Assembly (NCBI GenBank): GCA_024277355.1
Contig: JAJRVL010000011.1
Span: forward strand, 34,155-98,154
Direction: 5' to 3'
From: an archaeon
GTDB lineage: Archaea; Iainarchaeota; Iainarchaeia; Iainarchaeales; 1-14-0-10-31-34
DNA length: 64,000 nt
Numbering within the stretch: position 1 is the first letter of the stretch; each line of letters begins with the position of its first letter. Below the pieces are notes generated by a model that was not told the origin of the DNA, ran no database searches, and saw nothing but the letters and a program-made list of their open reading frames with translations. The translations under genes and the position numbers were made by a program. Positions 11,764 through 24,724 of the stretch are shown here, one piece after another.

Positions 11764-12672
11764 TTATTCTGCGAATTGCTCGTATTCTTCTGAATTAAAC
11801 CTGTATAAAAATCGCTTGATTTTTGAATTTTTAAAAGAATATTTTTCTATTACTTTTTCTTTTTTTCCTGAGAATTCCTCAAAAGGTGTTTTTTGTGAGG
11901 GGTCAAACAAATAAAAATTATTTTTGTATTCTGTAATTACAAAAGTATGAGTAGATAAATTTTCCAGTTCTGCTACAACAACAAAAGCTTTTTCATCTCC
12001 TAAAGCATAAAGCAAAGTACATAAAAAAACCGCAATGTCTTCATCATCTGCAATTTTATGTCTTAATATTTCTGAAGGAGCCATCCAATAATTGATTTTT
12101 AAATTTGATTCAACAAAAGAAATTTCTTTTACAACAAAGTCAAACGCTTCTTTTGCAATAGTTAAATAATTTTTTTCAAAAGAATAATCAGAAGAAATTA
12201 ATTCAGCTAAAATTGCCTGAATGCTTAAATCATCAGGATCAATTAATCCTTTGATTTCTCCAATAGTTTTCTCTTCTTTTTCATTTATTATTTCAGTGTA
12301 TTTTTCAAGCAAAAAAGAATAAAGCTTGAATTTAAGTTCTTTTTCTTTTTGTTTGTAATCTATTTCTGAAACTGATCCTAAAGCCTGCCTTAATTTAGAA
12401 TATTTTTCATATAAATCATTGTATTGAGATTGTTTTTTTGCTAATTCTAATTCAAAAACAGCAGTTGATTTTTTTGGTTTAGGAAACTGAATTTCATTTA
12501 ACTTTAATTTTAATTTAGCTAATTTAACTTCAAGTTCAGGTTTAGATAAATCATCTGCTTTTTTCAAAGAAGATTCTAATTCTTCAATTTTTTTCCATAA
12601 TTCCTGTTCTTCTATTGCCTTTGATTTAACTGGGAACATTAAATAAAAGCCCACAGAGAATGATTTAAACAT
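11764..12672 (-). CDS. coiled-coil protein with C-terminal transglutaminase-like (Cys-His-Asp) domain
   Basis: 302 aa. Core IAVFLCTLLYALG ... THTFVITEY ... FYLFDP fits the transglutaminase-like cysteine protease fold. Confidence 0.45.
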   Translation of the reverse strand: MFKSFSVGFYLMFPVKSKAIEEQELWKKIEELESSLKKADDLSKPELEVKLAKLKLKLNEIQFPKPKKSTAVFELELAKKQSQYNDLYEKYSKLRQALGSVSEIDYKQKEKELKFKLYSFLLEKYTEIINEKEEKTIGEIKGLIDPDDLSIQAILAELISSDYSFEKNYLTIAKEAFDFVVKEISFVESNLKINYWMAPSEILRHKIADDEDIAVFLCTLLYALGDEKAFVVVAELENLSTHTFVITEYKNNFYLFDPSQKTPFEEFSGKKEKVIEKYSFKNSKIKRFLYRFNSEEYEQFAE

Positions 12673-12793: not shown

Positions 12794-13192
12794 TTGAAGG
12801 GACAAATTTCAATTGAATATCTTACTTTAACTGCAATTGTTCTCCTTATTGTAGGAGTAATGTTTGTTTTTGCAATAACAACTGTAAATGAAAACGCAAG
12901 ACTTAATTCAGCTTATTATGCTACAAGAGAATTAGCTAATGCAGCAGATGAAGTAAGTACTAGAAATGGAAGCACTATTGTGGTTGAAATTGAACTGCCT
13001 TCAGATGTAACTTCTTTTTCAACTTTTGGGACAGACATTACAATTGAAATGACGTCTCTTTTAAATTCATTTCAGGTTTTTGATTCAAGCAAGGCATCAT
13101 TACAGCCGACAAATTTTTCCACTTCAGAAGGAACTCATTTTATTGCAGTGAATTCAACTGATTCAAATATCACTTTTACTGAACTTAATTAA
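12794..13192 (+). CDS. archaeal type IV pilin-like protein (class III signal peptide)
   Basis: TTG start. MKGQISIEYLTLTAIVLLIVGVMFV has a KG/Q cleavage motif with E at +5, followed by a hydrophobic helix. Confidence 0.6.
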   Translation: MKGQISIEYLTLTAIVLLIVGVMFVFAITTVNENARLNSAYYATRELANAADEVSTRNGSTIVVEIELPSDVTSFSTFGTDITIEMTSLLNSFQVFDSSKASLQPTNFSTSEGTHFIAVNSTDSNITFTELN

Positions 13193-13203
13193 AGGGATTA
13201 TAA

Positions 13204-13560
13204 ATGAAAGGGCAGGTTTCAATGGAAGTAATTATTGGAGCAATAATTTTATTGCTTGTATTGGTTTTTATCTGGATTTACAGTATTCAAACAAATGAAG
13301 GAATTGATGCATTAAAAAATTCAGTTGAATCAAAATCTTACTGCAGAGAAATTGCAGATACAATTAGTTCAGTTTATGCTTCAGGAACAAAAACTACAAT
13401 AGAATTTTATTCAGAAAAAGACTTTAATTTAAGCAATGGAATGGTTGATGTTAATGGTTTTCTCTGCAGTTATTATGCTGAAGCAGAAGAAAAATTTATA
13501 GCAAAAGGAAACATAAGAATAAAAGATTTGAACGGGGTTGTCGTGATTGAAAATATTTAA
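13204..13560 (+). CDS. archaeal type IV pilin-like protein (class III signal peptide)
   Basis: MKGQVSMEVIIGAIILLLVLVFIWI has the same class III signal architecture. Confidence 0.6.
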   Translation: MKGQVSMEVIIGAIILLLVLVFIWIYSIQTNEGIDALKNSVESKSYCREIADTISSVYASGTKTTIEFYSEKDFNLSNGMVDVNGFLCSYYAEAEEKFIAKGNIRIKDLNGVVVIENI

Positions 13561-14116
13561 GAGAAAATGCTCGGCTGAGCAAAGCGAATGCCGTGCACCG
13601 TCACACCCGAGCGGAATCGGGTCGCGAGCGAAATCGCGAGGGCAGTCAAGTTTAATTGATTTAGTTATTGGGTTTTTTATTTTTGCTTTGATTCTTGCTT
13701 CAATTATGGGAACTATAAATAAAAATACAAAAGATTTCACTAGAAATTCAGAAATAGATGAAATAAATCATGATTCTTTTTTTTCAGTAAAAGAATTAAC
13801 TGAAACAAAAGGTTTTCCTGAAAACTGGGAAATATTAGATGAAAATTCAGTTGAAAAAATAGGTTTAATTGAAAGGAGAAATACAATAAGTGAAGACAAA
13901 GTTGTTGCTTTTTCTAATATGACTTACAGCAAAACAAAAGAACTACTTAAAATAGAAGGATATGATTATTATTTTGTATTAAACGGAGTAGATAATATTA
14001 CTGCAGGAATAAATCCTGTTGGGCAAACAAAATATTCAATTATTACTAAAAGAATTGTAAATTATAAAGGAAGTGAAGCTGAAATTGAATTCAGATTATA
14101 TGAACTCTGGGAATAA
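13547..14116 (+). CDS. pilin-like protein with unusual GC-rich 5' segment
   Basis: The ORF reads through a ~80-nt 66%-GC island, then RGQSSLIDLVIGFFIFALILASIMG, a class III signal-like motif. The true start is uncertain (TTG in the track). Confidence 0.4.
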   Translation: MKIFKRKCSAEQSECRAPSHPSGIGSRAKSRGQSSLIDLVIGFFIFALILASIMGTINKNTKDFTRNSEIDEINHDSFFSVKELTETKGFPENWEILDENSVEKIGLIERRNTISEDKVVAFSNMTYSKTKELLKIEGYDYYFVLNGVDNITAGINPVGQTKYSIITKRIVNYKGSEAEIEFRLYELWE

Positions 14117-16820
14117 AGGATTTACTTTTACTTTAGATTCAATTCTTGCCTTGCTTATAGTTTCAGGAATAGTTATTTCTTCAGGATTATTTTTTACTGA
14201 AGAAAAAACTGAAATTAATTTAAGCCAGGAATTAAATGATTCATTTAATGCAATGGAAGAAACAGGTTATTTGATTAGTCAAGTGGATACAAATGTTTCT
14301 GGTTCAGCACAAAATATTTACAATAAATTAATTGGTTTTTTTCCTGACAGAATTGACTTTAATGTAACTGTAAAAGAATTAGACTTAAATAATACAAACT
14401 GCAGAGCAACACCAACTTTTAACGGCTGTTTTACTGATTCAAATGAATTTACTTTTGGTTCAAGTGTTCCAACAGACAAAACAATTTTTTATGGAAAAAA
14501 ATTAATAATAAAAAAACAACCTCCAGGAGAATGCGATACAAATATGCTTGGATTAGCAGAATATCCTTTTACATTTTATGAAAAAAACGATATCTTGTTT
14601 TTTGCGGGATCTGGAGATTTAAATTTTGTTTTTGATGTAAATGTAACTCCTTCAACTGAAATTGAATGCGACCAGAACATTACAATAGATTTAAGTGCAG
14701 CATTTCCTCCGGGTTATAGAAGACCTGTGGACATAATGCTTGTAATAGACAAAAGCGGTTCAATGAGCTGGGGGGGAAGATATGATACAAGCAGTGCAAG
14801 AGGAATAGATTTAGATGGAAATTATGCATATATTGCAGATTATAGCAATGGAATAAGAAGTTTTGATATTAGTGTTCCTTTAGTTCCTCAGTATTTGGAT
14901 AGATATGATACTTACAGAGCATATGATGTTTTTGTTGATGGAAGTGAAGCTTATTTGGCAGATTATTCATCTGGAATACGGTCAATTGATGTAAGCGATC
15001 CAAATAATATGAGTCAGGATGACAGAGTTGATTTATCTGTAAATTATTCTTTTGGAATAACAGTTAATGGAAATTATGCTTTTGCAGGCAATGGTTCAAG
15101 AGGAGTTGATTCCTATGACATAAGCAACCCAAACAACATGAATCAATTAGACAGATATAATACGCCTGGAACTGCAAGAGGAATTGATGCAAACGGAGAC
15201 TATGTTTATGTTGCAGATGGAGGAAGAGGATTAAGAGTATTAAATGCCTCAGATCCAAATGATTTATCTAATGAAGATTCTTTGGATTTAGGAGGATATG
15301 CTTATGATGTAAGAAATGTTGGAGATTATGCTTTTGTTGCAAATGGTTCAAGAGGATTAGATATTTTTGATGTAAGTGATCCTTCAGACATCAGTTCAAG
15401 AGGGCGGTATAATACTGCTGGAACTTCTTATGGAATTGATGTTGTTGGAAATACAGCTTATATTGCTGACGGAGGAGGAGGATTATATTCAATTGATATT
15501 AGTGATGTTGACAATCCTTCTTTAATTAAGAGATATGATACTCCTTATACTTATTATGATGTAAGAGTGAAAAATGGTTATGCTTTTATTGCAGCAGGAA
15601 ACATGGGGTTAATTACTTTGGATTTAACTTCAGGAACAAAAATGGATGCAGTTCATGCTTCAGCTAATGCTTTTGTTGACTTTAATGAATGGACTGATAA
15701 TGATCAAATGGGAATTGCAAGTTTTAATACAAGTTCAACTTTGGATTCACAATTACTAAAATTAGATGACACAAACAAAACACAATTGAAAAATGATATT
15801 AATGCAATAACTCCTGGCGGAGGAACAAACATTGAAGAAGGAATAAGAGAAGCAACAGATGAATTAATTTCAAGCAGAGCAGATCCTTATGCAATAAAAT
15901 TTATGGTGTTGCTTTCAGACGGAGTATCAACTTCAGGAGATTCACTTGATGCAGCACAAGATGCAAATGCAGAAGGAATAACAATTTATACAATTGGATT
16001 TGGCGGAGATGTAAGTGAATCAGAACTGCAGAATATTGCTAATGCAACTGATGGAAATTATTATTTTGCTTCAGATGCAAATACATTAATAGACATCTAT
16101 AATATTATTGCAGATAAAATTCAGGCTCAAGCAACTGATTCAAATGTAACAATTGTTGTTCCAAGTAATGTAACAATAATTAATGACGGAAACGCATCAA
16201 TAATTGACGGCAATTTAGTTTTTGATTCAGGAAATATTACTCCTGATACTCCCTGGCAGGGAAGTTATATCATTAATATTCCTTGTGATTCAAATTTAAG
16301 CTGCGACACTGCTTCAATTACTTTTCCCGGCCAAGGAAGCTTTTTGTCTTATGTTGATGTAAACGGAGTAACACAAACAGTTGACTGGAATAGTTTTACT
16401 GTTCCAATTCCATTTAAGAAAAGAGACATTACAGTTGAAATTACTAGTGGAGAATTGTTATCTGAAACAGATATTTTTATTGATGTAAATGTATCAAATA
16501 TTGGGGATTTAAATACCGGAACAACAGACTTAAATTTTTATTTAGGAAATGATTCAATCTGCAGTATTGGAGCAGGAAGAACTCTTTTGTCAAATCATTA
16601 TTTAGTTCCGGAATTATGCGGAAGCAATGATGAAAACTGTTCTTTTTCTACAACGCTTTATTTGGATGAATATATGTTAAGTCAGGGAATAATTTGTGCT
16701 GAAGTTAATCCTGACAGAAATTTAAAAGAATGTCCAAATAATAATCTTGATTCAATTCACTGTTATTTAGCTCCAAAAACACAGTTTTATGTAATTGAAT
16801 ACAGAGGATGGATTAAATGA
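14100..16820 (+). CDS. large pilin-led cell-surface adhesin: vWA domain interrupted by a 7-blade LVIVD beta-propeller, plus C-terminal CARDB-like beta-sandwich domains
   Basis: Likely start MNSGNKGFTFTLDSILALLIVSG (pilin-like N-terminus; track start is 14073). MIDAS DIMLVIDKSGSMS at ~14730, then 7 LVIVD-type repeats (GIDxxGNYAYIADxxxGIRSFDISDPNN), then the rest of a vWA fold (FMVLLSDG, ITIYTIGFGG). Many N-x-S/T sequons. Confidence 0.7.
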   Translation: MNSGNKGFTFTLDSILALLIVSGIVISSGLFFTEEKTEINLSQELNDSFNAMEETGYLISQVDTNVSGSAQNIYNKLIGFFPDRIDFNVTVKELDLNNTNCRATPTFNGCFTDSNEFTFGSSVPTDKTIFYGKKLIIKKQPPGECDTNMLGLAEYPFTFYEKNDILFFAGSGDLNFVFDVNVTPSTEIECDQNITIDLSAAFPPGYRRPVDIMLVIDKSGSMSWGGRYDTSSARGIDLDGNYAYIADYSNGIRSFDISVPLVPQYLDRYDTYRAYDVFVDGSEAYLADYSSGIRSIDVSDPNNMSQDDRVDLSVNYSFGITVNGNYAFAGNGSRGVDSYDISNPNNMNQLDRYNTPGTARGIDANGDYVYVADGGRGLRVLNASDPNDLSNEDSLDLGGYAYDVRNVGDYAFVANGSRGLDIFDVSDPSDISSRGRYNTAGTSYGIDVVGNTAYIADGGGGLYSIDISDVDNPSLIKRYDTPYTYYDVRVKNGYAFIAAGNMGLITLDLTSGTKMDAVHASANAFVDFNEWTDNDQMGIASFNTSSTLDSQLLKLDDTNKTQLKNDINAITPGGGTNIEEGIREATDELISSRADPYAIKFMVLLSDGVSTSGDSLDAAQDANAEGITIYTIGFGGDVSESELQNIANATDGNYYFASDANTLIDIYNIIADKIQAQATDSNVTIVVPSNVTIINDGNASIIDGNLVFDSGNITPDTPWQGSYIINIPCDSNLSCDTASITFPGQGSFLSYVDVNGVTQTVDWNSFTVPIPFKKRDITVEITSGELLSETDIFIDVNVSNIGDLNTGTTDLNFYLGNDSICSIGAGRTLLSNHYLVPELCGSNDENCSFSTTLYLDEYMLSQGIICAEVNPDRNLKECPNNNLDSIHCYLAPKTQFYVIEYRGWIK
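14794..15640 (+). repeat. seven tandem LVIVD-type repeats (~126 nt each) inside the adhesin gene
   Basis: Repeated peptide pattern Y(A/D)V...G(N/D)YA(Y/F)(I/V)A(D/N)G..G(I/L)...D(I/V)SDP. Confidence 0.6.
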
Positions 16821-17776
16821 AAAATAAAGGAATCTTTTTTCTTTTAATGGGATTAATTCTTTCTCTTTTAGTTTTGGGTTTTGGATTTAAAATAAACCAG
16901 CAGTATCTTGAAGCAGAAAAAAAATCATTTAATTCAAATGCATTACAACAAGTTAAAAACAAATACTCAAATATTAATTCAGTTAAAGACTTTTACAGAG
17001 AAGGAACAATAAAAACTTATTTTGAAAGAATTGTTCCGATTACTTATTCGGTTGATGAAAATACAATAAGCATTACTCAACAGCTTCCGATAAAAAAAGC
17101 TTTAGTGCGAAATTTTTTTGATTTTGTTAATGCATTTGAAATTTTCACTGAAACAACTGATTCATTAGTTTATGACGGAATAGATGTTGAAATTGAAACT
17201 GTTCAAAACAGTTTATGGGGAGGAACAGATGAAAACATTGTTTTAATGATTAAACCTCAATGCAAAAAATATTCAATTACAGATTATAATTCAATGCATT
17301 TTTATGGTTCAAATGAATGCGACAATGCTTTTGATATCAGTTTAATTGAAAGAATTGACATAAATATTACTGTAAGTTCAGATGATGATTTTAACAGATT
17401 ATCCTGTAATTTCGGAGGCGATTTAGTCTGTTATCAGGAAACTTATGTGCCTGCAAACCCAAATCCATTTATTGAAATAAACTTGATTGATTCAGCCTGC
17501 CCTAATTGCGATTTAAATTCAGATACAAGAACAATAAAAAAACATTTTACTCCTACTTCTGCAAACACAGTAATTTTTTCATGTTCAGGAACATGCACTT
17601 CTCTTCCAATAGAAATATTATTTAATGAAAATAATACTGAAATAAGGCATTCAGGAACAACAATAAGTGTTAAAACTGAATTTTTGTTTACAGACAAAAT
17701 AACTGAATTTGAATTAAATGATTTAAACATAAGTTTAACTGACTCAAAATTTAGTATAACAAAAACAAATAAGTGA
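16817..17776 (+). CDS. hypothetical pilus-associated protein with N-terminal hydrophobic anchor (minor pilin-like)
   Basis: 319 aa. MKNKGIFFLLMGLILSLLVLGF N-terminus, Cys-containing body. ATGA overlap with the adhesin. Confidence 0.4.
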   Translation: MKNKGIFFLLMGLILSLLVLGFGFKINQQYLEAEKKSFNSNALQQVKNKYSNINSVKDFYREGTIKTYFERIVPITYSVDENTISITQQLPIKKALVRNFFDFVNAFEIFTETTDSLVYDGIDVEIETVQNSLWGGTDENIVLMIKPQCKKYSITDYNSMHFYGSNECDNAFDISLIERIDINITVSSDDDFNRLSCNFGGDLVCYQETYVPANPNPFIEINLIDSACPNCDLNSDTRTIKKHFTPTSANTVIFSCSGTCTSLPIEILFNENNTEIRHSGTTISVKTEFLFTDKITEFELNDLNISLTDSKFSITKTNK

Positions 17777-17780
17777 AAAA

Positions 17781-18842
17781 ATGAATGCCATGAATTTAAT
17801 TTCAATAATTGCTTCAATAGCAATAATAATTGCAGTGTTTTTTGTCGCTAATGAAAACATTGTTAATTTTGAAAACACAAAAACACAAATAGAAATTCAA
17901 TCAAAAGAAAACTTTGAACAAGGAGAAAATGCAGAATTTATAATAAACATAGAAAGCGGAAAAGAAATAACAAAAATAATTTATATTTCTCCCACAAAAA
18001 GAGAAGAAAAAAATTGCGGAAAAAAAACATGCGTTTTGACTTTTAAGGAAATATTTACAGAAAAAGGAGTTTTTTTTATTGAAATAAAAGTTGAAATAGG
18101 AAAAGAAACATTCAGTGAAAAAAAGAAAGTTTATGTAAATGCCGCAGGAAAAAAATGTTCTGATGGAACTGCTTTTGGGTTATGCTCTTTAAACAAACCA
18201 CAATACTGCAATAACGGCAAACTTGAATATAACTGTGAAAAATGCGGATGTGAACAAGGAGAATGCATTAATAATAAATGCAGTTATTCAGGAACAACTG
18301 AAATTACAGGAATTTCACTTGAAAGAACATTTTTTGAGCCAAATCAGGAAGTGAAAATTAATTTAAATTCAAAAGAAAATAGTTTAGTTAATGTTGTAAT
18401 TGAATGGAAAAAAGACAATAAAACAGAAAAAACAGAAACAAAAAATACTTCATTAAATTATGTTCTGTCAGTTTCTCCGCCAAAAGAAGGAGTATATGAA
18501 TTAAACTTAGTTTTTGAAGAAAAAGTTTTTTCAGTTGAAAACATAACAATAAGAAATGACTCAACACCCCCAAAAACACCTGAAGGAATTATTGCAAGCA
18601 AAAGAAACGGAAAAATACTTATTGCATGGAATCCAAATACTGAAGCTGATTTAATGGAATACAGAATTTACAGGAGTAAAGAAGATAATCAGGCGTTTAC
18701 AACTTATACTATGGCAGAAACTGCATCAAAAAATGAAACCGGGAAAGAACTTGAAATATGGTCAACAAATTATTTTTACATTACTTCAGTTGACTATTAC
18801 GGCAATACATCAAAGCCAAGTGCAATAATTGAAGCAACGTGA
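17781..18842 (+). CDS. hypothetical surface protein, N-terminal TM anchor, Cys-rich middle, FN3-like C-terminal domain
   Basis: 353 aa. C-terminus PPKTPEGIIASKRNGKILIAWNPN...YRIYRS...YFYITSVDYYGNTSKPS resembles a fibronectin type III domain. Confidence 0.4.
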   Translation: MNAMNLISIIASIAIIIAVFFVANENIVNFENTKTQIEIQSKENFEQGENAEFIINIESGKEITKIIYISPTKREEKNCGKKTCVLTFKEIFTEKGVFFIEIKVEIGKETFSEKKKVYVNAAGKKCSDGTAFGLCSLNKPQYCNNGKLEYNCEKCGCEQGECINNKCSYSGTTEITGISLERTFFEPNQEVKINLNSKENSLVNVVIEWKKDNKTEKTETKNTSLNYVLSVSPPKEGVYELNLVFEEKVFSVENITIRNDSTPPKTPEGIIASKRNGKILIAWNPNTEADLMEYRIYRSKEDNQAFTTYTMAETASKNETGKELEIWSTNYFYITSVDYYGNTSKPSAIIEAT

Positions 18843-20659: not shown

Positions 20660-22180
20660 ATGAAAGAAAAAGTTTTAGAAACATATAAAGTAAAATCAAT
20701 TGAAACAGAAATAGAAGTAAATATTATTGAAAGAGAAAAAGAAGTAGTAAGAATTTATTTTTTAAATTTTCCTGAATTTGGAGCAGGAACAAAAGCCGTA
20801 TTAAAAAATTTAAAAAGAAGCATTATAACTGATTCAACAATTCAGGCAGAAAAAATGATGGATCCTAATTTTGTTGATTCACTTAAAAGAAAATTTCAGG
20901 GAAGAGCAGAAAAAATACTTGAAAAAGAACTTCCAAATATAGCTGAAGGCTCAAAAAGTTTGTTAATAGGATTATTATTAGAAGAAATGCTTGGATTAGG
21001 CAAATTAGAGTTTTTATTAAATGACGGAAACATTGAAGAAATAGTTGTAAATACTGCAACTGAACCAGTATGGATTTATCATAAAGGATATGGCTGGCTG
21101 AAAACAAATGTTTTTATTACTCCTGAAAAAGAAATACAAAATTATGCAAGTATTATTGCAAGAAGAATTGGAAAACAAATTACAATATTAAATCCTTTGC
21201 TTGATGCACATTTAATTACAGGAGACAGAGCTAATGCAACTTTATTTCCTATTTCAAGCAAAGGAAACACTATTACAATAAGGCGTTTTAGAAGAGAACC
21301 ATACACTATAACTGATTTTGTTGAAAACCGAACACTTAACACCGATATAATGGCTTTAGTATGGCTTGCAATGGAATATGAATTAAACATTATTTTTTCA
21401 GGAGGAACAGGTTCAGGAAAAACCACTTCATTAAATGTTTGTCTGCCTTTTATTCAGCCAAACCAAAGAATTTTAAGTATAGAGGACACAAGAGAACTTT
21501 CACTTCCAGAATATCTCCACTGGGTTCCATTAACTACAAGAGAACCAAACACTGAAGGAAAAGGCGAAGTAACAATGCTTAATTTATTAGTTAACTCTTT
21601 AAGAATGCGTCCAGACAGGCTGATTGTAGGAGAAATCAGAAGGCAAAGAGAAGCAGAAGTATTATTTGAAGCAATGCATACAGGACATTCAGCTTACACT
21701 ACTTTTCACGCTAACACAGCAGAAGAAACAATCAGAAGATTAGTTAATCCTCCAATTGAAATTCCAAAAACAATGCTTGATTCAGTTCACTTAAATATAG
21801 TAATGTTTAGAAACAGAAGATTAAATGTAAGAAGAGTGCTTCAGGTAGCTGAATATGTAACTGAAAGAAGAGGAGACACAGAAGAAGTAAAAGCAAATAT
21901 TTTATATCGATGGAAAGGAGCAACAGATACAATAGAAAAACATTCTGAAAGCATTAGATTATTTGATGAATTAGGATTACATACAGGTTTAAGCAAACAG
22001 GAAATGAACAATGAATTAAAAACAAAAAAGAAAATTCTTGACTGGATTACATCAAACAAAATTCGTTCAATACAGCATGTTGGAAGGATAATGGCAGATT
22101 ATTATATGAATAAAGACAACATAATTGAATTAGCAGAAAAAAACAAAAAACCAGATTATATTTTTGAGGAGAAAAAATGA
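20660..22180 (+). CDS. type IV pilus/archaellum-type assembly ATPase (FlaI/PilB/TadA family)
   Basis: 506 aa. Walker A FSGGTGSGKTTSLN, Asp box and Walker B region, His box (EAMHTGHSAYTTFHAN), typical of secretion NTPases. Confidence 0.85.
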   Translation: MKEKVLETYKVKSIETEIEVNIIEREKEVVRIYFLNFPEFGAGTKAVLKNLKRSIITDSTIQAEKMMDPNFVDSLKRKFQGRAEKILEKELPNIAEGSKSLLIGLLLEEMLGLGKLEFLLNDGNIEEIVVNTATEPVWIYHKGYGWLKTNVFITPEKEIQNYASIIARRIGKQITILNPLLDAHLITGDRANATLFPISSKGNTITIRRFRREPYTITDFVENRTLNTDIMALVWLAMEYELNIIFSGGTGSGKTTSLNVCLPFIQPNQRILSIEDTRELSLPEYLHWVPLTTREPNTEGKGEVTMLNLLVNSLRMRPDRLIVGEIRRQREAEVLFEAMHTGHSAYTTFHANTAEETIRRLVNPPIEIPKTMLDSVHLNIVMFRNRRLNVRRVLQVAEYVTERRGDTEEVKANILYRWKGATDTIEKHSESIRLFDELGLHTGLSKQEMNNELKTKKKILDWITSNKIRSIQHVGRIMADYYMNKDNIIELAEKNKKPDYIFEEKK

Positions 22181-23070
22181 TTGATAAAAGTGAAATAATT
22201 CCTTTCAATATTCTTCCAGTTCCATTAATAAAAAAACTTTCAATGAAATTTTATGGTACAGGAACAAAATTATCAAAATTTTTTCCTGATTTAAAATTAG
22301 AGTTAGCTCAGGCAGAATTAGCTTACAGCGAAAAAGAATACAGTGCAATAATCATTACAATGGCAGTAATTTACGGTGTTATTGGATTAATAATTGGATT
22401 ATTGTTTGGTTTCAGGCTTTTTCCTGATGGATTTATTTTAGTTGGGTTAGGCGGAGGAGCATTAGTTGGTTTTTTTGTAATGTTTCAGGTTGCTTTTTAT
22501 CCAAAAATAAAAGGAAAAAAGAAAATAAGAGAAATTGAAAGAAATTTAATTTTTGCTTTAAGGACAATGAGTGTAGAAATAAAATCAGGAGTTTCATTAT
22601 TTGATTCACTTAATATTATAGCACAAGGAGATTATGGTGCTTTATCAATTGAATTTGGCAAAGCAGTAAAAGAAATTGAAACAGGAACAATGGAAGAAAA
22701 TGCATTAGAAAAAATTGCAAGATATAATCCTTCATTGTTTTTCAGAAGAAGTATATGGCAGATAATTAATGGAATGAAAGCAGGAGCAGATGTAAGTTCA
22801 GTAATGGAAGAATTAGTTGCAACAATGATAAGAGAAGAAAAATTACAGATAACAAGATACGGTAATTCAATGAAATTACTTTCATTAATGTACATGATGT
22901 TAGGTGTAATAATTCCTTCTTTAGGAATAACTTTTTTGATTATATTATCTTCTTTTCCTCAAATGCAGTTAGGAGAATTATTATTCTGGATGTTATTAGG
23001 AGTTATTATTGTAGGTGAATTTATGTATTTAGGAATATTAAAATCAAAAACACCAAATTTAATGGGATAA
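22177..23070 (+). CDS. TadB/FlaJ-like platform membrane protein (one T2SSF domain)
   Basis: 297 aa. T2SSF-like block LIFALRTMSVEIKSGVSLFDSLNIIAQGDYGALSIEFGKAVKEIETGTMEENALEKIA plus TM helices. Confidence 0.7.
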   Translation: MIDKSEIIPFNILPVPLIKKLSMKFYGTGTKLSKFFPDLKLELAQAELAYSEKEYSAIIITMAVIYGVIGLIIGLLFGFRLFPDGFILVGLGGGALVGFFVMFQVAFYPKIKGKKKIREIERNLIFALRTMSVEIKSGVSLFDSLNIIAQGDYGALSIEFGKAVKEIETGTMEENALEKIARYNPSLFFRRSIWQIINGMKAGADVSSVMEELVATMIREEKLQITRYGNSMKLLSLMYMMLGVIIPSLGITFLIILSSFPQMQLGELLFWMLLGVIIVGEFMYLGILKSKTPNLMG

Positions 23071-23071
23071 A

Positions 23072-23467
23072 ATGTATGAAAAAATTAGTTCAATGATTCC
23101 AAGAAATGTCTTAAAGGCATTTAAAAACGAATTAACATATGCAGGAATAGACTTAGATGAAAAAAACTTTGTTGGTTTTGTGTTTGTTTTTGGTTTTGCA
23201 ACAGCAATTGCAGCAGGATTTGCTTTAAATTTCTTTTTTTCACTTCATTTTTTTATTGGATTTATTACAGGATTTATTTTAACTGTAGGGGGAATTTATT
23301 ACCTGCTTAATCAGGCAGGAGACAGCAAAGCAAGATTTGTAGAAAAAATTCTGCCTGACGCACTTCAATTAATTGCTTCAAACATGAAGTCAGGATTAAC
23401 AACAGAAAAAGCATTATTGGTTTCATCAAGACCTGAATTTGGTGCATTAGCAATAGAATTAAAATAA
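23072..23467 (+). CDS. TadC/FlaJ-like platform protein, N-terminal fragment (ends at an in-frame TAA)
   Basis: 131 aa. Ends ...ILPDALQLIASNMKSGLTTEKALLVSSRPEFGALAIELK* in the middle of a T2SSF domain. It is in the same frame as the next ORF. Confidence 0.5.
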   Translation: MYEKISSMIPRNVLKAFKNELTYAGIDLDEKNFVGFVFVFGFATAIAAGFALNFFFSLHFFIGFITGFILTVGGIYYLLNQAGDSKARFVEKILPDALQLIASNMKSGLTTEKALLVSSRPEFGALAIELK

Positions 23468-23479
23468 GCAAGCAAAAAA

Positions 23480-24055
23480 ATGATGACTGGAGAAAGAACT
23501 GAAACAGCCTTAAAAGAAATGACTTTAAAAATAAGATCAAAAATTTTCAGTAAAACAGTCTGGCTTATAACAGAAGGAATTAATTCAGGCGGAGAAATGG
23601 CTAACTTGCTTTTACAGTTGTCTAATGATTTAAGAGAGCAGAATGCATTACAGGAAGAAGTAAAAGGAAATGTTTCAATGTATGTAATTTTGATTTTTTT
23701 TGCTTCAGTTATTGGCGCACCATTAATGTTTGGAATAAGTTCTTTTATTGTACAGATAATGGCAAAACAAGCAGGTGGTTTATCAGGATTATCAGAAGAA
23801 AGTTTAGCTTTAGCTTCATCTCAAGGAGCATTTTCATCTGGAACAGGAATAAGTATTACAGCTGACTTTATTGTAATGTTTTCAATGATAACTTTGTTTG
23901 TTATTTCAGTTTTTGGTTCACTTACAATAGGAATAATAAGTACTAGAAGTGAAAAAGGCGTAATAAAGAATATTCCTTTAATGTTAATTTCATCTTATGT
24001 GATTTACTTTATTGTTTTAACTGTATTACAATCAACTTTTAGTTCATTGGTTTAA
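23480..24055 (+). CDS. TadC/FlaJ-like platform protein, C-terminal fragment
   Basis: 191 aa. Continues the same T2SSF domain (MMTGERTETALKEMTLK...GINSGGEMANLLLQLSNDLREQ), paralogous to the 22177 ORF, then 3 TM helices. Confidence 0.5.
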   Translation: MMTGERTETALKEMTLKIRSKIFSKTVWLITEGINSGGEMANLLLQLSNDLREQNALQEEVKGNVSMYVILIFFASVIGAPLMFGISSFIVQIMAKQAGGLSGLSEESLALASSQGAFSSGTGISITADFIVMFSMITLFVISVFGSLTIGIISTRSEKGVIKNIPLMLISSYVIYFIVLTVLQSTFSSLV

Positions 24056-24289: not shown

Positions 24290-24724
24290 TTAAACTGTTC
24301 CACTGCAAGTTGTTTTTTCTGATTTGGTTATTCCGCCTGTAACTGTATAATTAATTGTTACGTCTTCTGTAATGTTTCCTGAAAAAGTGTTTCCGCCTAA
24401 AACAAATGTGTTTTCATCTGTTTTTGCAAGCGAGGCATCTCCTGATGCAGAACCGTCTGCCCAAACAATAGTACCAGAACTTCCTGTAAAGCTATTAATG
24501 GTTATTGCATTAGGATTAGTGTTTTTAATTGTCAACTGAATGGTGTCTGCGTTAAAATCATAGTCTTTAATAAACAACTTTCCTCCGGTTGCAGTGCATT
24601 GTTTTGGAGTATTAAACACACCAAAAGCAAATAAGGCTGCAATTACAATTACAATTACAACCAAAGCCCAACCATAAGTCATCAGGTATTCCAATGCAGA
24701 TTGTCCTTTTGTATCTTTAAACAT
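24290..24724 (-). CDS. archaeal type IV pilin (Pilin_N / class III signal peptide)
   Basis: 144 aa. MFKDTKGQSALEYLMTYGWALVVIVIVIAALFAF is the canonical archaeal pilin N-terminal domain. Confidence 0.75.
   Translation of the reverse strand: MFKDTKGQSALEYLMTYGWALVVIVIVIAALFAFGVFNTPKQCTATGGKLFIKDYDFNADTIQLTIKNTNPNAITINSFTGSSGTIVWADGSASGDASLAKTDENTFVLGGNTFSGNITEDVTINYTVTGGITKSEKTTCSGTV

Follow-up and report, generated by a model that had tools for sequence, protein, structure and literature searches.

The stretch analysed here (hereafter the window) comprises 64,000 nucleotides of contig JAJRVL010000011.1 (assembly GCA_024277355.1) from an archaeon of the Iainarchaeota (Diapherotrites, DPANN), with a G+C content of ~28% throughout. 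On its forward strand, it carries a gene for a large protein in which a prepilin-like N-terminus is followed by a von Willebrand factor type A (vWA) domain split by a nested beta-propeller and by two C-terminal beta-sandwiches, an architecture that is almost certainly real and conserved among relatives. The mechanical open reading frame (14073-16820, + strand) begins with GTG and encodes 915 aa, whereas the first ATG, at 14100, yields a product of 906 aa identical to the database protein P0001, and all residue numbers given below refer to this shorter form. The start is ambiguous, as the annotations of two relatives, P0002 and P0005, include a longer leader ('MK.KLN...'), but the choice between GTG and ATG is immaterial: the mature protein is the same if the leader is cleaved between the G and the F of KGF. 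The gene is laid out as follows (a slash marks the predicted prepilin cleavage site; AF2, AlphaFold2):

14100..16820, + strand: gene of the pilin-like vWA/propeller protein, 906 aa (open reading frame; alternative GTG start at 14073 giving 915 aa)
14100..14189, + strand: class III (prepilin-like) signal, MNSGNKG/FTFTLDSILALLIVSGIVISSGLFF (direct reading of the sequence)
14190..14714, + strand: N-domain, residues 31-205, alpha/beta, with four invariant cysteines (AF2)
14715..14774, + strand: vWA part 1, residues 206-225, strand beta1 (210-217) and the DxSxS loop of the metal ion-dependent adhesion site, MIDAS (Pfam, conservation, AF2)
14775..15632, + strand: inserted seven-blade LVIVD beta-propeller, residues 226-511 (Pfam LVIVD)
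15633..16139, + strand: vWA part 2, residues 512-680, helix alpha1 through helix alpha6, including T576 (GGT) and D607 (LSDG)
16140..16421, + strand: first C-terminal beta-sandwich, residues 681-774, with the invariant pair C729/C735 (AF2, family conservation)
16422..16820, + strand: second C-terminal beta-sandwich, CARDB-like, residues 775-906, cysteine-rich, then the stop codon

The interrupted vWA domain and its propeller

Four independent lines of sequence and modelling evidence agree that the two flanks of the propeller form one predicted vWA domain, interrupted directly after the DxSxS motif of its MIDAS. In the native protein, the Pfam VWA match (E 3.8e-22, 79.8 bits against a cut-off of 23.8) covers residues 525-667, equivalent to profile positions 28-172 of 174, and the part of the profile absent from this contiguous match is precisely strand beta1 with the DxSxS loop. 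The corresponding beta1/MIDAS motif, DIMLVIDKSGSMS, occupies residues 211-223, where Pfam detects a faint match to VWA_CoxE (residues 206-224, E 0.17). When residues 196-225 were joined in silico to residues 512-690, with the propeller (226-511) removed, the VWA score increased from 81.6 bits for the C-terminal part alone (profile positions 28-172) to 98.6 bits for the spliced sequence (positions 1-172), and the VWA_2 and VWA_3 matches likewise became full length. The DxSxS segment, which the first-pass annotation of the locus had assigned to the vWA fold, therefore adds profile positions 1-27 and 17 bits, and the proposal of a single vWA domain broken right after this motif holds. The spliced sequence also aligns with solved vWA domains, such as 4rck and 4cn8, from DxSxS onward.

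The five MIDAS residues are all present, three of them upstream of the propeller in the sequence D217-K-S219-G-S221 and two downstream, namely T576 (in GGT) and D607 (in LSDG); the second part also contains the motifs FMVLLSDG (601-608), ITIYTIGFGG (627-636), and NYYFASD (653-659). In an alignment with 15 relatives sharing 33-76% identity, D217, S219, G220, S221, M222, W224, T576, and D607 are invariant. The MIDAS thus has its five ligands conserved, in the segment before the insert as well as in the one after it. Uninterrupted homologues of the domain exist in Candidatus (Ca.) Micrarchaeota (P0270 and P0271) and in P0178, where the Pfam VWA match begins at profile position 1 or 2 and the segments of strand beta1 and helix alpha1 are separated by 9-14 residues (the homologous beta1-alpha1 segments in P0270 and P0271 being 'PVDIMLVMDRSGSMDEDIDPGFGYRAKMDAAKDAAKAFV'; for P0178, the gap is of 9 residues by a scaffold-boundary estimate and of 25 aa by earlier match coordinates).

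Structure prediction agrees with this reading. The AF2 model of the full-length protein has predicted local distance difference test (pLDDT) scores of at least 90 from residue 211 to about residue 660, and a model of residues 196-690, built with a 27-sequence alignment, reaches a mean pLDDT of 92.8 and a predicted TM-score (pTM) of 0.88, with values of 93-95 for beta1 and the rest of vWA part 1. The elements of this second model follow each other as a strand (210-217), a one-turn helix over the MIDAS serines, 28 strands, and then alpha1 onward, and the order after the propeller (alpha1-beta2-beta3-alpha2-alpha3-beta4-alpha4-beta5-alpha5-beta6-alpha6) is that of a vWA domain minus beta1 alone. 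The insertion point is the beta1-alpha1 connection, 3-4 residues past the last MIDAS serine (S221). We considered whether strand 210-217 could instead be a 'velcro' strand closing the propeller, which is unlikely as the propeller already has 7 x 4 strands, and is also opposed by the insert-less homologues, in which the same strand directly precedes alpha1. The Foldseek lists for the full-length and 196-690 models, which carry no residue ranges, are dominated by WD40 proteins, with the vWA proteins 4fx5, SpaC, and PilB among the matches listed.

The propeller had been proposed to consist of seven LVIVD repeats, and Pfam LVIVD indeed matches seven stretches (E 9e-33; score 111.8 bits, cut-off 20.2), which repeat about every 42 residues, at anchor positions 240, 281, 324, 366, 408, 450, and 492. 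With tandem ~42-aa repeats above the cut-off and a closed propeller, the insert is a bona fide seven-blade member of the LVIVD family, just as its host is a bona fide vWA domain. Adindla et al. (2004, PMC2447325) described the LVIVD repeat (PF08309) as a 42-residue unit of surface proteins in archaea and bacteria, where it was predicted to build propellers, and thousands of LVIVD surface proteins match the insert. In those other proteins the propeller is free-standing, in series with Ig, PKD, or T9SS domains, whereas we found it nested within a vWA domain only in the Iainarchaeota family. Among close relatives, the propeller (62-75% identity) and the N-domain (59-65%) diverge faster than the vWA core (73-82%), and the beta1/MIDAS segment is 90-100% identical.

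Relatives and the modules at the insertion site

Further examples of the split vWA architecture, a search for which had been recommended by the first-pass annotation, are numerous: it is present in more than 50 cluster representatives and ~20 independent loci of Iainarchaeota metagenome-assembled genomes (MAGs) from many samples. The full-length relatives belong to MAGs labelled Ca. Diapherotrites or Ca. Iainarchaeum, to unlabelled archaeal MAGs, and to one 3-kb contig binned as Thaumarchaeota; in databases, they are annotated as 'VWA domain-containing protein' and nothing further. The closest species representative is Ca. Diapherotrites archaeon CG10_big_fil_rev_8_21_14_0_10_31_34, with 76% identity for the vWA/propeller protein and 88% and 94% for the neighbouring ATPase and KaiC-like protein, respectively.

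The propeller is one of several modules found at the insertion site, which is the most informative fact about this family and one that the first-pass annotation did not contain. Relatives of ~750 aa devoid of LVIVD repeats match the window protein over its N-terminal 200 and C-terminal 390 residues. To classify the inserts, we located the scaffold boundaries in 49 complete representatives and took as insert the stretch between DxSGSM and alpha1:

Propeller only: 284-300 aa, 22 of 49 representatives
Propeller with one nested ~150-aa domain of unrecognised family: 431-477 aa, 12 of 49
Propeller with two or three nested domains: 584-592 aa, 2 of 49
One cysteine-containing sandwich-like module, with no Pfam match: 113-148 aa, 10 of 49
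Two cysteine-containing sandwich-like modules: 240-242 aa, 2 of 49
No insert (P0178, with a degenerate MIDAS): 9 aa, 1 of 49

The DxSGSM motif is retained in 48 of these proteins, the exception being the insert-less P0178. Pfam yielded no match for either the small module (~125 aa) or the nested domain (~150 aa). A stretch of ~800 aa at the site occurs in a 1478-aa protein of the Ca. Iainarchaeum AR10 lineage (L026:6872-11305, + strand) and includes a Laminin_G_3/ConA-like lectin domain (E 2.3e-24) and several small cysteine-containing modules. A rough neighbour-joining tree of the scaffold interleaves the insert types, which suggests repeated module exchange on one scaffold.

Several side observations concern these modules. 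The ~150-aa domain ('...LRSS..G..LA...Y.W...YY.V...YY.W...') is nested in the propeller in one to three copies in many relatives (P0013, P0014, P0018, P0154, and P0169, from loci L002, L003, L008-L012, and L018, as well as P0016 and P0225), which makes three levels of nesting, namely this domain in a propeller in a vWA domain; P0016 and P0225 have a further copy after helix alpha3 of the vWA domain. A 2077-aa non-pilin surface protein of a Halobacteriota MAG (L024:169-6399, + strand), containing Big_1, Invasin_D3, fn3, and PKD domains, carries in its vWA domain a module of ~105 aa at the same place ('DVMHVIDRSGSMGW...ERIDAAKNSAKSFV'). Insertion after the MIDAS is thus not confined to the pilin family. 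The insert-less relatives in Micrarchaeota have an ordinary signal peptide and one of them (P0271) a C-terminal transmembrane anchor. In two Ca. Micrarchaeota loci (L021 and L023), vWA genes of this P0270/P0271 type adjoin genes for a T2SSE ATPase and TadC, so that the association of vWA proteins with pili reaches beyond the Iainarchaeota and is independent of a pilin-like N-terminus.

Terminal domains and the type IV pilus operon

The N-terminus has the features expected of a prepilin: a short polar leader, K-G at positions -2/-1, an acidic residue at +6, and a hydrophobic helix. The class III pattern, KG/FTFTLD in the window protein, is conserved across the family as [KR]GF.F[ST].[DE], and a simple pattern scan of the whole window found three class III-type N-termini, all in the pilus operon. 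The following N-domain has four invariant cysteines (C101, C110, C145, and C190) and is modelled by AF2 as helices at 12-27, 41-54, 57-64, and 66-80 followed by strands, with pLDDT values of ~70-80 and a disordered loop at 148-173. It is possibly the globular domain of a pilin. We use the label 'pilin' because of the signal and the gene context, not of the fold.

At the other end, the first sandwich (681-774) is all-beta in the AF2 model and has no Pfam match. The second one matches CARDB (PF07705) weakly in the window protein (residues 776-853, 17-21 bits, cut-off 22.7). In the family, 11 of 23 members match CARDB at E <= 0.01 (best 6.5e-6), and a family profile matches the CARDB-like PDB chain 3idu (E 1.8e-4) and 2kl6. 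The complete protein contains 23 N-x-S/T sequons, compared with 12.7 +/- 3.2 in shuffled sequences, ~0.2% of which reach 23, and the excess is located in the N-domain (7 versus 3.1) and in the C-terminal domains (8 versus 3.9). The pilin-like N-terminus, the sequon-rich C-terminal sandwiches, and the type IV pilus operon of the first-pass annotation are thus borne out, the latter by the genes around the vWA/propeller gene, which include those for a T2SSE ATPase and two T2SSF/TadC proteins and prepilin-like neighbours:

11764..12672, - strand: transglutaminase-like / CEP76-peptidase-like gene (Pfam), divergent and upstream of the operon
12794-13192, + strand: candidate minor pilin MKGQISIEY..., prepilin-like N-terminus (Class_IIIsignal E 6.6e-5, 23.2 bits against a cut-off of 23.7)
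13204-13560, + strand: candidate minor pilin MKGQVSMEV..., prepilin-like N-terminus
13547-14116, + strand: candidate minor pilin ...SRGQSSLIDLVIGFF..., prepilin-like N-terminus
16817-17776, + strand: conserved gene, 319 aa, prepilin-like start MKNKG/IFFLL...
17781-18842, + strand: conserved gene, 353 aa, N-terminal transmembrane helix
18889-20655, + strand: conserved gene, 588 aa, extremely Lys/Glu-rich, no Pfam match
20660-22180, + strand: T2SSE-type assembly ATPase (Pfam T2SSE E 4.4e-37)
22177-23070, + strand: TadC/T2SSF 1 (Pfam T2SSF; E 1.7e-16 and 5.6e-7 for the two T2SSF genes)
23072-24055, + strand: TadC/T2SSF 2 (T2SSF), with an in-frame TAA at 23465-23467
24290..24724, - strand: PilA-like candidate major pilin MFKDTKG/QSALEYLMTYGWALVVIVIVIAAL..., conserved beside the operon in related loci

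The three small upstream genes have KGQ- or RGQ-type prepilin N-termini and are syntenic in ~20 related loci. The T2SSE and T2SSF genes lie 3.8 kb downstream of the vWA/propeller gene on the same strand, and a gene for a KaiC-like ATPase is found beyond the PilA-like pilin at the downstream end. This gene order is repeated around P0011, P0014, and P0018 and, according to tblastn searches of loci from species-representative genomes, is conserved in ~20 Iainarchaeota loci.

Some neighbours have peculiarities of their own. The Lys/Glu-rich product is encoded directly upstream of the ATPase, and weakly similar genes (28-47% identity) occupy the same place in most related loci. For the in-frame stop of the second TadC/T2SSF gene ('...AIELK*ASKKMMTGER...'), possible explanations are a sequencing error, pseudogenisation, and a genuine split of the gene; in L001, L002, and L003, the orthologue is one uninterrupted gene of 324-335 aa. 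The ATPase of the P0011 locus (L001:15876-18668, + strand; Ca. Diapherotrites GCA_016198125.1) is split by an intein with a LAGLIDADG endonuclease, whereas that of the window is intein-free. The transglutaminase-like gene is found at the same position in 16 of the ~20 related loci and may belong to the pilus system, for example in pilin processing or cross-linking.

A candidate pilus adhesin and its known counterparts

On balance, we think that the gene product is probably a modular minor pilin acting as a pilus-presented adhesin, the adhesive end-piece of an archaeal type IV pilus. The position at the tip, already suggested by the first-pass annotation, is plausible by analogy with two bacterial systems, although the N-domain has no detectable similarity to any pilin. 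The first is PilB of Streptococcus sanguinis, which joins a pilin to a vWA module, binds its ligands in a MIDAS-dependent manner, and is probably located at the pilus tip (PMC8179133). PilB is also the first vWA-containing entry among the Foldseek matches listed for the 196-690 model (7ba2, rank 42). Both proteins have a class III signal with a hydrophobic helix, a complete MIDAS-bearing vWA domain, and a gene in a type IV pilus locus. By contrast, PilB is bacterial and lacks both a propeller and C-terminal sandwiches, and its vWA domain is contiguous and free of nested modules, whereas the window protein has an N-domain that is not recognisably a pilin by sequence and a vWA domain interrupted by a 286-aa propeller after the MIDAS motif. 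The second analogue, the adhesin and mechanosensor PilY1/PilC of Pseudomonas and Neisseria, combines a vWA domain and a propeller on type IV pili; minor pilins are proposed to display it at the tip, and its N-terminal modules can be exchanged between species (PMC8179133). The fold pair is the same as in the window protein, but PilY1 is not a pilin and its domains are serial, an N-terminal vWA followed by a C-terminal propeller of the PilC/PilY1 family (IPR008707). Membership in that family can be rejected, as the window protein has no Neisseria_PilC-type Pfam match at E <= 1 and its LVIVD propeller is nested, not C-terminal; by analogy, it resembles PilY1 in its likely way of working, not in family.

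The protein could then operate as follows. A prepilin peptidase would cut the leader between the G and the F of KGF, and the hydrophobic N-terminal helix would, as assembly begins, dock with the adjacent minor pilins, so that, in this proposal, polymerisation would leave the protein at the tip of the filament. There, the vWA domain and the inserted module would make up a composite ligand-binding head. The points at which the chain exits the vWA fold (3-4 residues after S221) and re-enters it (the first residues of alpha1) would force the module onto the MIDAS face, where an acidic group or glycan of the target would coordinate with the metal while specificity would come from the module. A swap of modules would retarget the pilus to another cell surface or substrate; candidate targets of the window protein are partner cells, polymers, and mineral surfaces.

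Several points weigh against this interpretation. The topology, pLDDT, and pTM of the predicted models are what suggests that beta1 packs between beta2 and beta4, that the five MIDAS residues cluster, and that the propeller sits on the MIDAS face, where a module could equally occlude the metal site. The neighbour-joining tree behind the idea of module swapping has long branches and no bootstrap support. Pfam Class_IIIsignal (PF04021) does not match the 906-aa protein and neither does any archaeal pilin family in Pfam or NCBIfam; likewise, the N-domain (31-205) resembles no pilin, Pfam family, or PDB chain in searches with single sequences and with a 19-sequence profile. Finally, the prepilin peptidase motif G.GD[VAILM]K is not found in the 64-kb window, and two loci with small inserts (L015 and L016) have no ATPase or TadC gene in the downstream sequence covered.

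A possible, if rather unlikely, alternative is that the protein is a receptor or adhesin anchored to the cell surface outside any filament, its class III signal serving for export and anchoring only, as proposed for the Sulfolobus bindosome. This would suit an N-domain not recognisable as a pilin, a size very large for a filament subunit, and the insert-less Micrarchaeota relatives with their ordinary signal peptides and, in P0271, transmembrane anchor; moreover, the archaeal pilus census of Makarova et al. lists large secreted proteins in type IV pilus loci as 'adhesin or S-layer protein', leaving the matter undecided (PMC4858521). It fits less well with the conservation across the family of the prepilin-like motif with its acidic +6 residue, and with a gene that always lies between small pilin-like genes and the ATPase/TadC genes, the same arrangement as in bacterial sets of minor pilins and tip adhesins (PMC8179133).

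We have also considered a bolder version of the adhesin hypothesis, which we regard as distinctly doubtful: the vWA domain could be a general display socket that holds any plugged-in module on its MIDAS face, a single-chain counterpart of the integrin headpiece, with its propeller packed against a MIDAS domain, behaving as a force-sensitive (catch-bond-like) adhesin. The beta1-alpha1 loop and helix alpha1 are the elements that move when vWA domains switch affinity. Through them, the module's capture of a ligand would be coupled to metal coordination at the MIDAS, and pulling on the pilus would load exactly the beta1-alpha1 junction. The exchangeable module would determine for which partners or substrates the Iainarchaeota are specific. 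If this were true, the type of module would predict the attachment partners of uncultured DPANN cells.

It appears quite improbable that the protein is instead a component for pilus assembly or anchoring whose MIDAS binds another pilus protein, as proposed for TadG or for priming by PilY1, the inserts being structural. In its favour, vWA proteins figure in the archaeal type IV pilus census as pilus anchors or regulators (ArnB, TadG; PMC4858521), PilY1 is reported to control assembly dynamics too (PMC11525922), and the operon position of the vWA gene is invariant. Nevertheless, an internal partner would not predict the exchange of propellers, LamG domains, and sandwich arrays beside the MIDAS on a constant scaffold, nor a propeller diverging faster than the vWA core, nor an enrichment in sequons of the kind usual in archaeal proteins exposed at the surface. 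The occurrence of both lectin-type and propeller modules at one site is more in keeping with an adhesin than with a factor for internal assembly.

A catalytic propeller, which would make the protein a pilus-displayed or secreted enzyme and not an adhesin, is very unlikely. The propeller phosphotriesterase 5hrm is among the top Foldseek matches of the 196-690 model, but WD40 proteins score the same or better, indicating a similarity generic to seven-blade propellers, and, even if some LVIVD homologues (P0019 and P0059) carry peptidase domains, no catalytic family is matched by sequence and other family members have lectin-like or sandwich modules in place of the propeller. That the split vWA is an artefact (an assembly chimera, a vWA fragment fused to a propeller protein, or a fortuitous DxSxS) has a negligible probability and is excluded by conservation as far as sequence evidence can, since the faintness of the Pfam match of the N-terminal segment alone is outweighed by recurrence across representatives and loci, the invariant motif, the full-length joined score, the uninterrupted homologues, and the pTM of 0.88.

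Beyond PilB and PilY1, the pilus adhesin that we favour can be compared with other MIDAS-bearing proteins. As in integrins, a seven-blade propeller and a MIDAS-bearing vWA domain are combined by domain insertion, but the nesting is reversed: the integrin alpha-I vWA sits between propeller blades, whereas here the propeller sits in the vWA domain. The first-pass description of the protein as the inverse of the integrin alpha-I arrangement is therefore topologically correct. The propellers themselves differ (FG-GAP in integrins, LVIVD here, with no FG-GAP match in Pfam). There is no sign of common descent with the integrin arrangement and the similarity is a convergent pairing of two folds. In integrins devoid of alpha-I, ligands bind at the junction between the alpha propeller and the MIDAS face of beta-I (PMC12422189). 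The pilus-tip adhesins SpaC, RrgA, EbpA, and Mfa5 are also built around a MIDAS vWA domain with Ig-like or sandwich domains, and SpaC and Mfa5 are among the sequence and Foldseek matches listed. However, they belong to bacterial sortase-assembled or type V pili, with covalent or strand-exchanged subunits and no type IV machinery. In such adhesins, the vWA domain is itself the inserted domain or carries short arms, and none of these four is known to have a whole propeller after the DxSxS loop.

The presumption that this architecture was undescribed stands insofar as we found no paper on a propeller nested in a vWA domain or on a pilus adhesin of Diapherotrites in the literature searched, which lacked many subscription papers. 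The census of Makarova et al. treats vWA proteins as cytoplasmic regulators (ArnB) and names no such adhesin (PMC4858521), and the survey of modular pilins by Raynaud et al., based on the bacterial IPR012902 signature, finds them widespread in bacteria with no mention of 'archaea' (PMC8179133). We know of no cultivated Iainarchaeota. The first-pass annotation had gone further in calling the organism likely episymbiotic and the protein a host-attachment factor, which is not established: the relatives are Diapherotrites/Iainarchaeota MAGs, and a DPANN review considers an independent life possible for Ca. Iainarchaeum andersonii (PMC6349945).

With its ordinary machinery and two ordinary folds, this is not a new kind of system: bacterial type IV pilus adhesins made of a pilin and a vWA domain (PilB) or of a vWA domain and a propeller (PilY1) were already known. 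What is new, as far as the literature searched shows, is a candidate archaeal counterpart and a whole propeller nested beside the vWA MIDAS, together with the use of the same post-MIDAS site by other modules (small sandwiches, a LamG lectin array, and propellers with nested domains) or by none. As the mirror image of the alpha-I insertion of integrins, it offers a clean case of convergent fold pairing. The family constitutes a natural series on one scaffold, from no insert through a sandwich, a double sandwich, a lectin array, and a propeller to a propeller with nested domains, well suited to studies of the exchange of specificity modules and of the influence that an adjacent domain has on a MIDAS. 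For the uncultured Iainarchaeota, it provides a concrete candidate attachment protein, whose soluble and confidently modelled head (residues ~196-690) could be expressed to fish for ligands and partners.

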